This document shows, in pieces, positions 1,069 to 7,162 of a DNA stretch of 56,213 nucleotides (positions are counted from its first letter, which is position 1; each line of letters opens with the position of its first letter). The stretch comes from a virus (taxonomy: Duplodnaviria; Caudoviricetes), in the IMG/VR virus record IMGVR_UViG_3300006108_000017, positions 1-56,213 of that record; one strand, written 5' to 3'. The notes beneath the pieces are model-generated. The model saw only the letters and a program-made list of their open reading frames with translations. It had not been told where the DNA came from and made no database searches. The translations under genes and the position numbers were made by a program.

Positions 1069-2466
1069 TTACGCTGCTTGCGCGTTTGCACGAACTTGGG
1101 CGAAGGTCATGTCGCGGACGAGCTTGCCGTCACGGAACACTTCCTCCAAGGCCTGCTTAGGCCAATCTTCTACGCCACTGAAGTAATTTCCAGTGTCGTC
1201 CTTCATCAGGGTTACCCGACCCTTTTTAGAGGTCTTACCGTGGTCGGTGATCGGGTCCTTGTAGACGTCTCTCCAGAAGAGAGTCGCCTTGTCTCCCCGA
1301 ATACCGATCGAGCTGCACTTCATCGCGAACTTCATGGTGTCGCGATTGACCTGCTGCAGTAGAGCACCACCTTGACCGAAGGTGATGTTGTCGGCGCTGT
1401 AGCCGGCCATGTCGGTCACGAAGAGGATTGCACGGATCGTAGTGTGATCAATGCCGTCTCCCTGGATGACGCGAACATTGTTGAGGACCTTGTAGCCCTT
1501 GTCGTTGATGGTGTGGCCGAAATGCTCATCGAGAATGCGGAGGCAATCAAGAACCACTTCAGCAGGGTCACCGCTGTCAGGGCGAACCACCACGGTGGCG
1601 CCGCTCTTGATGACGTCTTCCTTCAGCTTGGTTCCCCAGAGGTGGCAAGCTGCGAAGATGTCGTAGCTGTCAGAGACGCAGGCAACCAAACCACCAGGCT
1701 TGGCGTTCTGCTTCAGCATGTTGCGGAAGGAAGTTTCTTCACCGTCACGGCCCCAGCTGGTTACCGTGCTGTGCTCCATCGCAGGGATGGAGAAGCCGGC
1801 CATCGGCTCATTGTAGAAGCGACGTCCAGCCAGAATAGCAGAGATCGTGTCAGTGCCCTTGAAGTTGATTAGGTGGGCGAGACCGCCGAGAGCAGCGCTT
1901 TCCTTGCTGCTAACGCCTCGGGCGCCGAAGTCCTGCAGCTTGAAGTCGATGAGCGAAGGATCACCTGTCTTCTCGAGAGCCTTGAGGATGATCTTGCGGC
2001 TTTCGTAGCTGTTAGTTGCGACCGTGGTCGGATACCAGATGGCCCGGAGGATTGCGGTCTCGAGGAAGCTGGTCAGCCAGGCGCACTTGGGATCAGTGTT
2101 CTCAATGGTTGCGAGAACGTTCTTCGTGGGGATGATGGCGCCCTCAGGAGCCGCCTTGATCACGACTGGCATGTAGCCCTTGTGCTTCTTGAGAATGTAT
2201 TCCCAGCCGGCACGGTTGAAGGGTTCGCCATGAGCGAGGATGAGTTCCTCAGCATAGTCGATGTCGGATTGGGTGATCGGCTTCATGAGGTAGCGCTTGA
2301 TGAACGCCTGCAGACCAAAGAAGACCGTCTTGTCCCAATGACCACCGCGGCTCTCAATGTACGAGTAGACGTACTCGGTCCCCGGAGGATACTGGTTGAA
2401 CTGGCTGTACTTGTAGCTGTCGCTATCAAGGATAATGCTATCCCAGTTGATTTCGTCGATATTCAT
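1069..2466 (-). CDS. nadV: Nicotinamide phosphoribosyltransferase (NAMPT)
   Basis: DSYKYSQ, DFGARG, PAMEHS, VSDSYD, RPDSGDP, IQGDG and KSKKGR-like motifs; 465 aa. Confidence 0.97.
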   Translation of the reverse strand: MNIDEINWDSIILDSDSYKYSQFNQYPPGTEYVYSYIESRGGHWDKTVFFGLQAFIKRYLMKPITQSDIDYAEELILAHGEPFNRAGWEYILKKHKGYMPVVIKAAPEGAIIPTKNVLATIENTDPKCAWLTSFLETAILRAIWYPTTVATNSYESRKIILKALEKTGDPSLIDFKLQDFGARGVSSKESAALGGLAHLINFKGTDTISAILAGRRFYNEPMAGFSIPAMEHSTVTSWGRDGEETSFRNMLKQNAKPGGLVACVSDSYDIFAACHLWGTKLKEDVIKSGATVVVRPDSGDPAEVVLDCLRILDEHFGHTINDKGYKVLNNVRVIQGDGIDHTTIRAILFVTDMAGYSADNITFGQGGALLQQVNRDTMKFAMKCSSIGIRGDKATLFWRDVYKDPITDHGKTSKKGRVTLMKDDTGNYFSGVEDWPKQALEEVFRDGKLVRDMTFAQVRANAQAA

Positions 2467-2470
2467 AGAA

Positions 2471-2512
2471 TAAGCTCCTTACTCTCAGGTTATCCAGAAG
2501 TCGTTCTTCTGG
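2471..2512 (-). promoter_or_regulatory. Putative structured leader of nadV (AACGA-loop hairpin plus SD hairpin)
   Basis: Minus strand CCAGAAG-AACGA-CTTCTGG, 12 nt, TAAG-GAG-CTTA, then ATG; same layout as 4141..4183. Confidence 0.6.
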
Positions 2513-2531
2513 GGTTAGCATGATGATCTCG

Positions 2532-2539
2532 TATAAATA
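2532..2539 (+). promoter_or_regulatory. T4-type late promoter TATAAATA for the GIY-YIG gene
   Basis: Exact TATAAATA 22 nt before the ATG at 2562. Confidence 0.75.
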
Positions 2540-2561
2540 CACAGGTCATCATGGAGGGGTT

Positions 2562-3104
2562 ATGAAGCGCTACGGGTTTATCTACATTACCACAAACACT
2601 ACCAATGGCATGAAATACATTGGACAATGTTCTGGTGATCCGGAGAGCTCCATGGTTAAAAGATACTTTGGTTCTGGCAAGGCCATTCTTCGAGCAATAA
2701 GAAAGAATGGTATTGAGAACTTTACAAAAGAGATTGTAGAGTTTGCAGACAGTCGTGAAGAACTTAATGCCGCCGAACGAAGGATTATAGCAGAGCACGG
2801 CGCCGTCAGAAGCAGAAACTACTACAACATTTCTCCAGGTGGAAGAGCGTCTTTGGGATTTACAGGAAAGAAACACTCTCTTGAAAGAAATGCTAGATTG
2901 AGCGAAAAGATGAAAGGCCATAGTGTCTCTCAAAATGTTAGAAAAGCCACTGCTGAAACCGGCAAGAGATTTGCTGCCAAAAATCTCAACACGGTCAGGG
3001 TAACTTGCCCGCACTGTGGTTTTGTAGGCTACAAAGGAAACTTGCATCGTTGGCACTTTTCTAACTGTAAGCTTAAACCCGACCAACCATCGTCTGAAGA
3101 ATAG
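2562..3104 (+). mobile_element. Free-standing GIY-YIG (Seg-like) homing endonuclease
   Basis: GFIYITTN...KYIGQ, YFGSG, YYNISPGG, NUMOD3-like GKKHS, C-terminal CPHC..RWHFSNC; GGAGG RBS; AT-richer and antisense to neighbours. Confidence 0.9.
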
Positions 3105-4140
3105 ACCAATGGTCCTCAAACCATCTATCTGTTTGTGAGAGTGCTTCGTTGATTGGGATCCACTCGCACTTCTTAACTTCTCCCTTTTGAGGACGGACTT
3201 TCGGGAGAGGCTTGCTGTCATCGAGCTTCAGAAGGTAGCACGTGGTGATCGTACGACCACGAAGGCTACGATCTGGATGATCGAAGATTTCCTTGCTGCG
3301 AACGGCGCCGTAGAGCTGAGCCTTGGAAAGCTCAATGCGGGTTTCTTCCTGCAGCTCACGAATGGCACCATCGAGAGTCTTTTCGTCTTGCTCGAGGAAC
3401 CCGCCAGGGAGAGCCCAGAGACCGACGCCAGGGAAGTTGTCGCGGACATTGACAAGGACGTGTCCAGATTGGATGACGCACGTATCAACCGTGACGAACG
3501 TGGGCGCATATGGTGCAGCTTCCCAGGCCTTCTTGTATCGCTCGATGAACTCGTACTCACGGACCAGACCTTCGTAGGCTGGGTTCTTGAGGAAGTCCTC
3601 GAGGAAGTAGTAGGTCGTTTGCGGGATGGATTTGGTTGATGCGATTTCCTTCTTGCCGAAGAGAGCATCGCGCACCTGAGTCGCGCTCAGTTCGAACCCG
3701 TAGTCGTGCTCCTTGACGAGGTCATGCTCGAACATGTCGCCGAAGGTGTGAAGGTACCACGTGGTCTTGTCACGATCGGCGCCCGTGAGGTGGACATCGG
3801 GATTAAGACCGATGACGTCCACGAGTTCATTGCACGCGCTGTCAACAGCTTCCTGAACACCGCGGATCCACGCTTGATCATTGTAAGGATGATCGTAGAT
3901 CGGCTTGATGAGGAGAGGCTTCGGGGAGGCGATCACGCGGTCAGCATAGTTGCGGACCATTTGGGCACGTTCTTCGAATGTGAAGGGGTTCTTGGTGTTG
4001 CGGGCTTGACCCGAACTGCCGACCAACACGAGGACAGCTTTGGACGTTTGAAGAGCTCGCTTGAGAACGGCGGCATGGCCGTTGTGGAATGGCGAGAATC
4101 GTCCGATGAAGACCGTTAGGCCTTTAAGTTTGTGTTCCAT
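3073..4140 (-). CDS. natV: Bifunctional NMN adenylyltransferase / ADP-ribose Nudix hydrolase (NadM-Nudix, NatV-like)
   Basis: GRFSPFHNGH, KNPFTFEER, SATQVR; Nudix box GGFLEQDEKTLDGAIRELQEET; FEDH at C-terminus. Confidence 0.95.
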   Translation of the reverse strand: MEHKLKGLTVFIGRFSPFHNGHAAVLKRALQTSKAVLVLVGSSGQARNTKNPFTFEERAQMVRNYADRVIASPKPLLIKPIYDHPYNDQAWIRGVQEAVDSACNELVDVIGLNPDVHLTGADRDKTTWYLHTFGDMFEHDLVKEHDYGFELSATQVRDALFGKKEIASTKSIPQTTYYFLEDFLKNPAYEGLVREYEFIERYKKAWEAAPYAPTFVTVDTCVIQSGHVLVNVRDNFPGVGLWALPGGFLEQDEKTLDGAIRELQEETRIELSKAQLYGAVRSKEIFDHPDRSLRGRTITTCYLLKLDDSKPLPKVRPQKGEVKKCEWIPINEALSQTDRWFEDHWSILQTMVGRV

Positions 4141-4183
4141 ACTGGCTCCCAGTTGGCTGATGTCCACAAGGATCGTTTCCTTG
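4141..4183 (-). promoter_or_regulatory. Putative structured leader of natV (AACGA-loop hairpin plus SD hairpin)
   Basis: Minus strand CAAGGA-AACGA-TCCTTG, 13 nt, ACTGG-GAG-CCAGT, then ATG. Confidence 0.6.
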
Positions 4184-4191
4184 ATCAAAAT

Positions 4192-4199
4192 TATTTATG
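4192..4199 (-). promoter_or_regulatory. Late-type promoter CATAAATA upstream of natV
   Basis: Matches the nATAAATA motif recurring before genes. Confidence 0.55.
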
Positions 4200-4235
4200 G
4201 AGCGGTGTTGATCAGGCAACAAAATGTTAAATTAG

Positions 4236-4264
4236 ATTATACCCTATTTGCCCGTATAGTACAC
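4236..4264 (-). promoter_or_regulatory. Early promoter
   Basis: GTGTAC...TATAAT. Confidence 0.7.
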
Positions 4265-4266
4265 AC

Positions 4267-4302
4267 AAAAATGGCCCGCACTCTAAAAAGTTGCGGGCCA
4301 TT
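4267..4302 (-). terminator. Intrinsic terminator
   Basis: ATGGCCCGCA/TGCGGGCCAT stem with T-run on minus strand. Confidence 0.75.
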
Positions 4303-4307
4303 CTGGA

Positions 4308-4574
4308 TTAGCGGGTGGCTTGGTAGAAAGCGCCGTCCTTCATGAGGTAGACTTGGTTCTTGACACCGTAGGCCATGTTGGTGAGACCGTGACCGGTAAC
4401 TTCAACCGGCTTGGCATACACGGGATCACGGCTGCCATTGTAGACATAGGTTGTCTTGATGGCGCCCGGAGCGCTAGGATCACAAATCTTGCCGAAGCAG
4501 ATATTGCTGAAGCTGTCGGTCGGGATGGCAACCAGATTGCGATTGCGGCGGAACTGAAGACCTTTGAAAAGCAT
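4308..4574 (-). CDS. Hypothetical early protein
   Basis: 88 aa ORF between an early promoter and a terminator; GAGG RBS. Confidence 0.7.
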   Translation of the reverse strand: MLFKGLQFRRNRNLVAIPTDSFSNICFGKICDPSAPGAIKTTYVYNGSRDPVYAKPVEVTGHGLTNMAYGVKNQVYLMKDGAFYQATR

Positions 4575-6502: not shown

Positions 6503-6751
6503 TTATTGGCTCTTCCACGGCTCAAACACTCGCTCCATCAGTTCGCGAATGTCGGGAACGCGCTTGGCGTCCATGAGAAGATCCAAGTGCTCCTGCTCCA
6601 GCTTGAATGGTTCTTCTTTGATTGACACGCCGAGCTTCTGCTTGGCCCAATGAGCTGCACGATGTGTGTCTACATTTCCGTACTGGTCACAGAAGTTGTA
6701 GAAGATCAACAGAATGTCGATCTCCAACTTGGTGACATCAGGCTCATTCAT
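6503..6751 (-). CDS. Hypothetical protein
   Basis: Start MNEPD behind AAGGAG, downstream of the tmRNA terminator. Confidence 0.65.
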   Translation of the reverse strand: MNEPDVTKLEIDILLIFYNFCDQYGNVDTHRAAHWAKQKLGVSIKEEPFKLEQEHLDLLMDAKRVPDIRELMERVFEPWKSQ

Positions 6752-6770
6752 TTGTACGCGTCTCCTTGTT

Positions 6771-6800
6771 AAAAATGGGAGACCCCCGAAGGAGCCTCCC
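6771..6800 (-). terminator. Intrinsic terminator of tmRNA
   Basis: GGGAGGCTCC-TTCG-GGGGTCTCCC-ATTTTT. Confidence 0.85.
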
Positions 6801-7127
6801 ACCTAACCGTTCGGTGACAAGGTGGTCAGCCTCGTGAGGACTTAAGCCGCGAGGGCTACCTCAAATGCGTTATCGTTAGCATTTACTTTTTTCGCTTCCC
6901 TTAGGGGGAACGCCTATCCTGTCGCGCCCGTCATCTCAGCAACACTGTCGAAACTGGTCGGGCCCATGATTAAGCATTTGGCATCTCAACTGATACTTTT
7001 GGACACAGGTGCCGGTTTTACGGCTGAGCCAAATGCTTAATGGTGGACCCGCCGGGAATCGCACCCGGGTCCAATGTTCTTCAAGTCAAGTCGAATTACG
7101 ACAATCATCTCGGCCTTACGGCTTCGA
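6776..7127 (-). ncRNA. ssrA: Circularly permuted (two-piece) tmRNA
   Basis: Acceptor piece ~7127-7041 with T-arm CCGGG-TGCGATT-CCCGG then CGGGTCC-A-CCA; intervening segment 7040-6966; coding piece from 6965 GGGCCCG; 7-bp acceptor stem with G3:U70; tag ANDNAFEVALAA* at 6880-6842; outer ends approximate. Confidence 0.93.
6842..6880 (-). other. tmRNA tag reading frame (A)ANDNAFEVALAA*
   Basis: GCT AAC GAT AAC GCA TTT GAG GTA GCC CTC GCG GCT TAA preceded by AAAAAAGTAAAT. Confidence 0.9.
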
Positions 7128-7133
7128 TATTCT

Positions 7134-7162
7134 ATTTTATACCGCCACCACCAAAAGTAAAC
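7134..7162 (-). promoter_or_regulatory. Early promoter for tmRNA
   Basis: GTTTAC...TAAAAT. Confidence 0.75.

Follow-up and report, generated by a model that had tools for sequence, protein, structure and literature searches.

nadV and natV, the two NAD (nicotinamide adenine dinucleotide) salvage genes of the Caudoviricetes record IMGVR_UViG_3300006108_000017 (the whole record, 56,213 bp, was analysed and is called the window here), share one type of mRNA leader. Both genes lie on the minus strand, and each is preceded by a first hairpin (hp1) of 6-7 bp with the pentaloop AACGA, a linker, and a second hairpin (hp2) that bears the Shine-Dalgarno (SD) sequence and ends at the ATG. Comparison with relatives in phages and bacteria shows a strand-specific, covarying two-hairpin RNA, as predicted from sequence, restricted to natV, nadV and a few small neighbouring open reading frames (ORFs). 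By these comparisons it is a real, conserved and publicly uncatalogued, putatively cis-regulatory leader of the gene pair. The natV-nadV pair constitutes NARP2, which the part of the preprint consulted presents as a phage pathway that rebuilds NAD+ against NAD-depleting defence (bioRxiv 10.1101/2024.02.11.579819).

Architecture of the leaders in the window

The genes, start codons and leader parts are as follows.

1069-2466, minus strand: nadV, nicotinamide phosphoribosyltransferase, 465 amino acids (Pfam NAPRTase 2.9e-53, NAMPT_N 5.6e-28)
2464-2466, minus strand: nadV start codon ATG
2467-2485, minus strand: nadV leader hp2, 8-bp stem (one G-U) with GAG triloop (2475-2477), holding the SD AAGGAG and abutting the ATG; -6.0 kcal/mol alone
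2486-2493, minus strand: nadV leader linker, single-stranded, 8 nt
2494-2512, minus strand: nadV leader hp1, 7-bp stem with pentaloop AACGA (2501-2505); from sequence reading and RNAfold
3073-4140, minus strand: natV (NadM-Nudix), nicotinamide mononucleotide (NMN) adenylyltransferase fused to a Nudix hydrolase, 355 amino acids (Pfam CTP_transf_like 6.5e-15, NUDIX 4.5e-20)
4138-4140, minus strand: natV start codon ATG
4141-4153, minus strand: natV leader hp2, 5-bp stem with GAG triloop (4146-4148), SD GGGAG, ATG directly after; -4.8 kcal/mol alone
4154-4166, minus strand: natV leader linker, 13 nt
4167-4183, minus strand: natV leader hp1, 6-bp stem with pentaloop AACGA (4173-4177), beginning 6 nt past a -10-like hexamer

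Direct reading of the minus strand confirmed both leader sequences as written in a preliminary description of this DNA, and likewise its statement that in each leader a hairpin encloses the GAG of the SD. The 4-bp GAG hairpin at 2471-2481 of the nadV leader, with a 12-nt spacer before it and 4 nt between it and the ATG, is lengthened by RNAfold to the 8-bp stem at 2467-2485. In both leaders hp2 carries the SD at its apex, and its 3' arm forms the spacer between SD and AUG. The loop-to-loop distance had been put at 24-25 nt; the similarity of spacing holds, the actual values being 23 and 24 nt. An intrinsic terminator was considered for hp1 and rejected, as no T run follows hp1 in either leader and the terminator scan listed neither.

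The pentamer AACGA occurs 126 times on the two strands of the window, and only the two leader copies stand in hairpins of at least six pairs. First-order Markov simulations of the window gave a mean count of 0.36, with 19 of 300 simulations reaching at least two, and repeats of many other pentaloops are seen among the 410 hairpins of the window. The repeated AACGA loop is therefore by itself weak evidence inside the window; the case is carried by position, by the linked SD hairpin and by conservation in relatives. The nadV leader folds at -16.5 kcal/mol (z -3.60), which none of 200 shuffles equalled; the natV leader is the weaker of the two, at -14.2 kcal/mol with a z of only -1.50 and 15 of 200 shuffles as good. 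Minimum free energy folds recovered the two hairpins in the window and in three relatives (L003, L060 and L124 in the numbering of loci used below).

Conservation, covariation and gene specificity

Loci of NatV and NadV relatives were fetched from IMG/VR (59 and 17 loci, respectively). Among the loci with the closest NatV (61-69% identical), L001, L003 and L006 have an AACGA hairpin 5' of natV and L004 has an AACGC hairpin in this place; all four have a second AACGA hairpin just after natV and before nadV, with entirely different stems. More distant phage loci have the identical layout with the loop ATAGA or, more rarely, ACAGA, AAAGA, ACGGA or AGGGA. That features defined from the window leaders located these relatives is independent support for the element.

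A covariance model (R1) was built from an alignment of 22 leaders chosen by a hairpin-finding script (A1), the window rows being part of the seed. In 695 kb searched on both strands it gave 72 matches at an expect value (E) of 10 or less, all 72 on the gene strand. Apart from 10 matches on duplicate contigs and the two of the window, 60 were examined: 30 precede nadV, 19 precede natV, one precedes a natV-like fragment, and 10 precede small ORFs adjoining natV. The whole window contains only two R1 matches at E<=10 (that of nadV at 2466-2512), whose scores follow by construction, the window rows being in the seed.

The leader is, on this comparative evidence, widespread and not phage-specific, since it accompanies bacterial natV-nadV operons as well. 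In 80 bacterial chromosomal nadV loci the search yielded 41 matches at E<=10, all but one in the sense of the gene. They stand in front of nadV and, some 1.1 kb farther upstream, in front of natV. Among their sources are Burkholderia, Ralstonia, some Paraburkholderia, Lysobacterales/Xanthomonas and Thiothrix; the stems are GC-rich and the loops are ATAGA, ACAGA or AAAGA. Taken over all searches, the leader type was seen in Burkholderia, Ralstonia, Variovorax, Methylocystis and Caulobacter and in a phage of Rhodobacter. Of the 52 bacterial loci that have natV directly upstream, 29 gave covariance-model matches, and of the 28 without natV none did, a count that leaves out one minus-strand match (L187, E 9.1). 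When the 23 model-negative loci containing natV were inspected by eye, about 20 showed an N-N-N-G-A hairpin together with hp2; the Variovorax type has the loop GUUGA, two model-negative loci have GGAGU or GGAGC loops, and one further locus is ambiguous. The motif that the preliminary description proposed to look for in the leaders of nadV and nadM-nudix homologues is thus present, by covariance-model search, in both phage and bacterial loci.

Twelve cultured phages were also examined. Rhodobacter phage RcXuper has the full motif on both natV and nadV, and Milchi has an hp2-like hairpin before nadV. X1, Marzo, phiM19, XacN1, RB43 and a KVP40-like phage have hp2 without hp1; Aes012, Ccr2 and PG07 have neither hairpin. 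In jumbo phages of the CBB/GAP32 type (L045, L048, L049 and L101, the last being Pectobacterium phage CBB), hp1 has a loop of 6-7 nt (GTTGTA, GTAGTA or TGAAGTA), and an identical hp2 stands before natV and nadV; CBB, which is one of the twelve, shows GTTGTA and TGAAGTA.

The preliminary description took differing stems around a conserved loop as the sign of a conserved RNA structure, and covariation bears this out in two larger alignments. In A3 (43 distinct rows) 97.4% of the cells are paired and 11 of 12 pairs have changed on both sides, against 21-46% paired when the 3' partner is slid by 1-3 columns, and in A5 (74 distinct rows from phages and bacteria) 97.1% are paired; these percentages are inflated by ascertainment, A1 having been picked by the hairpin script and A3 and A5 fitted to the model, which tells against taking them at face value, and related rows are not independent events. 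The covariation score of A5 is 0.921, versus 0.221 for shuffles and at most 0.148 for the slid controls. DNA contigs from four runs are identical to the window wherever they cover the leaders, and therefore they contribute no compensatory changes at the population level; among public runs, no RNA run containing this DNA was listed.

The loop itself was described too narrowly at first. Counted position by position over 44 rows of A3, the hp1 loop has A in 42, A or U in 40, A or C in 41, G in 43 and A in 41, 34 of the 44 rows close the loop with G-C, and every stem position varies. The commonest hp1 loop of the family is ATAGA. The conserved form is, in these alignments, N-N-N-G-A, and AACGA is a lineage variant of the commoner ATAGA, so that the AACGA pentaloop proposed as the conserved feature holds for the lineage of the window only. 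As delimited by models R1-R3, a member of the family has an hp1 stem of 5-9 bp bearing this loop on the gene strand, a G-poor linker of about 8-18 nt and an hp2 that stops 0-5 nt short of the start codon; both window leaders conform in hp1 and hp2. The linker measures 9-18 nt in the model-aligned set and is strongly G-depleted even in genomes of 65-70% GC: at linker positions 3-8, G is found in 3, 1, 1, 0, 0 and 4 of 74 rows, and the overall composition is A 303, U 272, C 261 and G 90. The two window linkers have one G in 8 nt (nadV) and three in 13 nt (natV), the latter being less G-poor than the family. No consistent pairing was seen by eye between hp1 and hp2 or between either loop and its flanks. 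Inspection by eye for a pseudoknot joining the hp1 loop to the linker, to hp2 or to the start region likewise showed nothing consistent; one chance pairing of this kind in the window nadV leader fits the loop ATAGA, not its own AACGA.

The shape of this loop bears on whether the leader could be bound by a host RNA-binding protein of general function, such as CsrA/RsmA. A CsrA/RsmA dimer binds a GGA in a hairpin loop and a GGA in the SD, and the geometry of such sites is similar, with an ANGGA pentaloop hairpin and a second site at the SD 23-24 nt apart; the loops ACGGA and AGGGA do occur in the phage locus L034. CsrA is nonetheless very unlikely, because hp1 lacks the GGA core: 41 of 44 rows have A or C at loop position 3, and the window loop is AACGA. 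The motif furthermore occurs in groups (Burkholderia, Ralstonia, Variovorax, Methylocystis, Caulobacter and, through a phage, Rhodobacter) that to our knowledge mostly lack CsrA, and a global regulator would not be limited to two genes per genome, whereas the leader is confined to one gene pair.

Since hp1 is an inverted repeat near or over the natV transcription start, it could in principle be a DNA operator for a transcription factor such as NrtR. NrtR sites are 21-bp DNA palindromes with a GT-N7-AC core, bound by a Nudix-winged helix-turn-helix protein (Rodionov et al., 2008, PMC2330246); they are ADP-ribose-responsive and belong to the same genes, in nadM-nadV and prs-nadV operons, according to the part of this source consulted, in which the leader is not described. 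The leader differs in being conserved at the RNA level. Its half-sites are not conserved, only the asymmetric centre is; the gene strand bears 112 of 113 model matches (phages, 72 of 72; bacteria, 40 of 41); the same element stands between natV and nadV without a promoter match; and on sequence reading neither window hp1 contains the GT-N7-AC core. The free half-sites and the strand bias exclude an NrtR-type operator, and a DNA operator as such is extremely improbable.

Specificity for the two NAD-salvage genes was upheld by several scans, with the addition that a few small neighbouring ORFs also carry the leader. Ten phage contigs of 91-368 kb, six of them at least 90% complete, were scanned whole. 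All eight matches at E<=1 in one scan lie inside the natV/nadV cluster, as do 9 of 12 in another, whose three remaining matches score weakly (E 0.37-0.98). For whole bacterial genomes, where the AT bias of model R2 left it with 2 matches in 5 genomes, the scan was made with R3, which was retrained on phage and bacterial rows; four of the five genomes scanned contributed rows, and Xanthomonas translucens did not. In these five genomes (4.3-8.8 Mb), 9 of 11 R3 matches at E<=5 are natV or nadV leaders; the two others (E 0.6-0.95) look like noise.

Tallies made independently of the models agree, and are lower bounds because bulged stems are uncounted. In phage loci hp2 was found at 70 of 114 natV/nadV starts versus 49 of 734 control ORF starts, and an NNNGA-loop hp1 at 26 of 114 versus 2 of 734, one of these two control cases being a real small-ORF instance. 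The corresponding numbers for bacterial loci are 49 of 130 versus 50 of 773 for hp2 and 26 of 130 versus 0 of 773 for the NNNGA-loop hp1. A sequence-only pattern scan of IMG/VR returned at least 75 distinct matches. Among the matches listed, 15 form both hairpins and all of these precede nadV (9) or natV (6); two further natV/nadV leaders have hp1 stems of 3-4 bp. The 58 listed matches without a natV/nadV homologue downstream fail the two-hairpin test, nearly all having no hairpin; among these 58, L254 has a 4-bp hp1 and a 10-bp hp2 and looks like a real instance.

The small phage ORFs that stand next to natV with the same leader encode 67-141 amino acids and fall into at least five unrelated families. 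They include the following, listed in three groups (L024, L020 and L091; L032, L026 and L067; L030/L035).

L024, 3075-3449: small ORF with the leader
L020, 3075-3446: small ORF with the leader
L091, 1547-1915: small ORF with the leader
L032, 3652-3975: small ORF with the leader
L026, 2635-2958: small ORF with the leader
L067, 2630-2953: small ORF with the leader
L030/L035, 3627-3980: small ORF with the leader

None of these ORFs matches a Pfam family, their PHROG matches are all to groups of unknown function, and they have no homologue in the window. The AlphaFold (AF2) model of the phrog_33851 family, with a predicted local distance difference test (pLDDT) score of 82, has no PDB match at E<=0.001; that of phrog_12218 is poor (pLDDT 62). 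Such ORFs may belong, with natV and nadV, to a regulon for NAD or counter-defence. In L007 a full leader (3040-3089) precedes an ORF of 46 amino acids whose start resembles the N-terminus of NatV; it may be a broken or frameshifted natV copy.

Known elements and the proposed mode of action

Searches against Rfam 15 (gathering threshold over the whole window; E<=10 over 2400-4350) gave no gene-strand family match to the leaders. The nine matches at E<=10 over 2400-4350 all belong to unrelated families; one of them, a weak match to snoRNA sR34 at 4102-4162 (E 5.9), spans the position of natV hp2 but is on the plus strand, opposite to the leader. In nine bacterial loci Rfam at E<=1 likewise gave no match to the leader. 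A cobalamin riboswitch (93.2 bits) lies at 3930-4161 of L165, just downstream of a bacterial nadV, and is unrelated to the leader. Literature searches, with supplements such as Table S2 of the NARP2 preprint (bioRxiv 10.1101/2024.02.11.579819) outside their scope, found no description of the leader, and neither does the part of PMC9503650 consulted contain one.

The preliminary description did not recognise the element as the NAD-I or NAD-II riboswitch, and rightly so, given that no Rfam match appeared even at E<=10. The NAD+-I (nadA motif) and NAD+-II (pnuC motif) riboswitches are, like the leader, cis-regulatory RNAs before NAD-synthesis genes, and the NAD-II riboswitch also occludes the SD; they differ from the leader in architecture, in genes (here nadV/natV) and in taxa. 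Guanidine-II (mini-ykkC) is closer in plan, with two small hairpins, a variable linker, conservation in loops and closing pairs, and the second hairpin at the ribosome-binding site. Both of its loops are ACGR and pair with each other, whereas the leader loops, N-N-N-G-A and GAG, are not complementary. Identity with guanidine-II was rejected on the GAG loop of hp2, the commonest hp1 loop ATAGA and the unmatched Rfam model. A boxA/boxB-like antitermination element was dropped, as the linker resembles the boxA consensus only loosely.

Our favoured, and still tentative, reading is that both leaders represent one conserved mRNA element, acting in cis, which accompanies the natV-nadV cassette and would control translation initiation. 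Within this reading the leader is most likely a translational operator, in which hp2 would mask the ribosome-binding site and hp1 would be the recognition handle. hp2 is predicted to pair the 5' part of the SD and the whole spacer between SD and AUG. With these paired, the 30S subunit would have to melt hp2 (about -5 to -6 kcal/mol in the window), which would limit and equalise translation of the two enzymes. hp1 would offer a handle for a trans-acting reader, its stem sequence being free and its N-N-N-G-A loop constant from Burkholderia to jumbo phages. A reader binding the apical R-G-A motifs of both hairpins would lock hp2 and repress translation. Because the element moves among unrelated phages and alpha-, beta- and gamma-proteobacteria, such a reader should be either universal or borne by the cassette. 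Foremost among the candidates is NatV (or NadV), which would repress its own synthesis and be released by a metabolite of the pathway; this is the weakest step of the scheme. The preliminary description had likewise suggested, as one option, an operator bound by NatV (NadM-Nudix) in response to NAD or ADP-ribose, a role that is putative. The only hints that make NatV a candidate are the co-occurrence with natV in bacterial loci (29 of 52 versus 0 of 28) and the loop type in the window, which follows the natV lineage. Autogenous translational operators serve as the working model. Those of E. coli thrS, T4 gene 32, gene 43, the regA targets and ribosomal proteins have a hairpin with a sequence-specific loop at or over the SD, read by the encoded protein; there the binding proteins are known, while here the reader is only proposed. 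In order of likelihood we place a cassette-encoded protein such as NatV first, a ligand-free standby or stability module second and a small riboswitch third.

Several points weigh against such an operator. The co-occurrence with natV is explained equally well by inheritance of the whole cassette, and NatV and NadV are not known to bind RNA. The window natV leader, with 15 of 200 shuffles folding as well, also counts against it. In many phages the leader consists of hp2 without hp1 (X1 to the KVP40-like phage above), and hp1 would therefore be dispensable and hp2 may act alone, constitutively. In promoter-proximal leaders hp1 starts about 6-13 nt after a -10-like hexamer, a position that fits a plain stabiliser of the 5' end too; intercistronic copies start just after the natV stop codon.

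A second reading is a module that works without any regulator or ligand. Here hp1 would be a clamp at the 5' end or between cistrons, stabilising the mRNA and insulating the leader from upstream sequence, the linker would be a ribosome standby site, and hp2 would set translation at a fixed, low and equal level. The depletion of G from the linker even in GC-rich bacteria, the place of hp1 a few nucleotides after -10-like hexamers, the hp2-only leaders of several cultured phages and the lack, by eye, of an alternative hp1-hp2 pairing all fit. Such a module leaves unexplained why the N-N-N-G-A loop and the G-C closing pair (34 of 44 rows) stay constant amid varying stems, and why the element is confined to natV, nadV and their neighbours in genomes of up to 368 kb (phages) and 8.8 Mb (bacteria). 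We hold it to be possible, on the unlikely side.

That same confinement, a strict tie to one pathway, would suit a minimal riboswitch. In this reading NAD+, NMN, nicotinamide, ADP-ribose or phosphoribosyl pyrophosphate (PRPP) would be bound by the hp1 loop, possibly together with the linker and the tip of hp2, and the stability of hp2 would change. Like riboswitches, the element is self-contained and portable across diverse phages and alpha-, beta- and gamma-proteobacteria, its loop is near-universal rather than lineage-specific, and guanidine-II is a precedent for two small hairpins with conserved loops. On the other side, only about 7 nucleotides are conserved outside the SD, no junction, internal loop, pseudoknot or alternative pairing between a sensor and hp2 was seen by eye, and the loops of hp1 and hp2 are not complementary. 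Many leaders also have no hp1, and some lineages have 6-nt loops (GTTGTA and GTAGTA, in the CBB-like jumbo phages). A riboswitch of this kind appears unlikely.

Genomic setting and significance

Three further features surround the gene pair in the window.

2562-3104, plus strand: GIY-YIG/SegE-like homing-endonuclease ORF, between natV and nadV on the opposite strand
4190-4219, minus strand: sigma-70-like promoter, TTGCCT-18 nt-AATAAT, directly 5' of natV hp1 (consensus match only)
4273-4299, minus strand: terminator-like GC hairpin followed by a T run, closing an upstream ORF of 88 amino acids (sequence reading; absent from the list of the terminator scan)

The terminator-like hairpin ends the upstream ORF, and natV therefore probably starts its own transcript. 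The NatV of the window is closest (61-69% identity) to that of phages in which NadV shares only 39-45% identity with the window NadV; the latter shares 71-72% identity with the L060 type, which has ATAGA loops in its leaders. The leader loop type in the window thus tracks the natV lineage and not the nadV lineage. By these identities the natV-nadV cassette of the window is a mosaic, with a putative exchange point near the endonuclease gene. Just 5' of the endonuclease ORF, an inverted repeat (2520-2526 / 2546-2552, plus strand) flanks TATAAATA (2532-2539, plus strand), which we take to resemble a T4 late promoter; an SD and an ATG follow. Elsewhere in the window, a transfer-messenger RNA (tmRNA) gene lies at 6751-7141 on the minus strand (Rfam permuted tmRNA RF04321, 116.5 bits; beta_tmRNA RF01850, 94.8 bits), with the tag peptide ANDNAFEVALAA as read by ARAGORN.

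NARP2 consumes PRPP and over-produces NAD+, according to the part of the preprint consulted, which describes no regulatory element (bioRxiv 10.1101/2024.02.11.579819). Control of NARP2 expression should therefore matter. It is conceivable, although doubtful, that the leader is a new and very small sensor of NAD status, either a riboswitch or an own-enzyme operator responding to NAD+, NMN or ADP-ribose, that moves with the cassette and in phages would switch on NARP2, as a counter-defence, and its small neighbours only when immune NADases of the host have depleted NAD+. Common to both genes, conserved between soil bacteria and jumbo phages and lacking an Rfam entry, the leader offers a testable handle on the tuning of NAD salvage, and several families of small phage proteins of unknown function are marked by it as probable co-members of the regulon. 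If it does sense a metabolite or its own enzyme, it would represent a new class of regulatory RNA and a compact, portable part for synthetic control.

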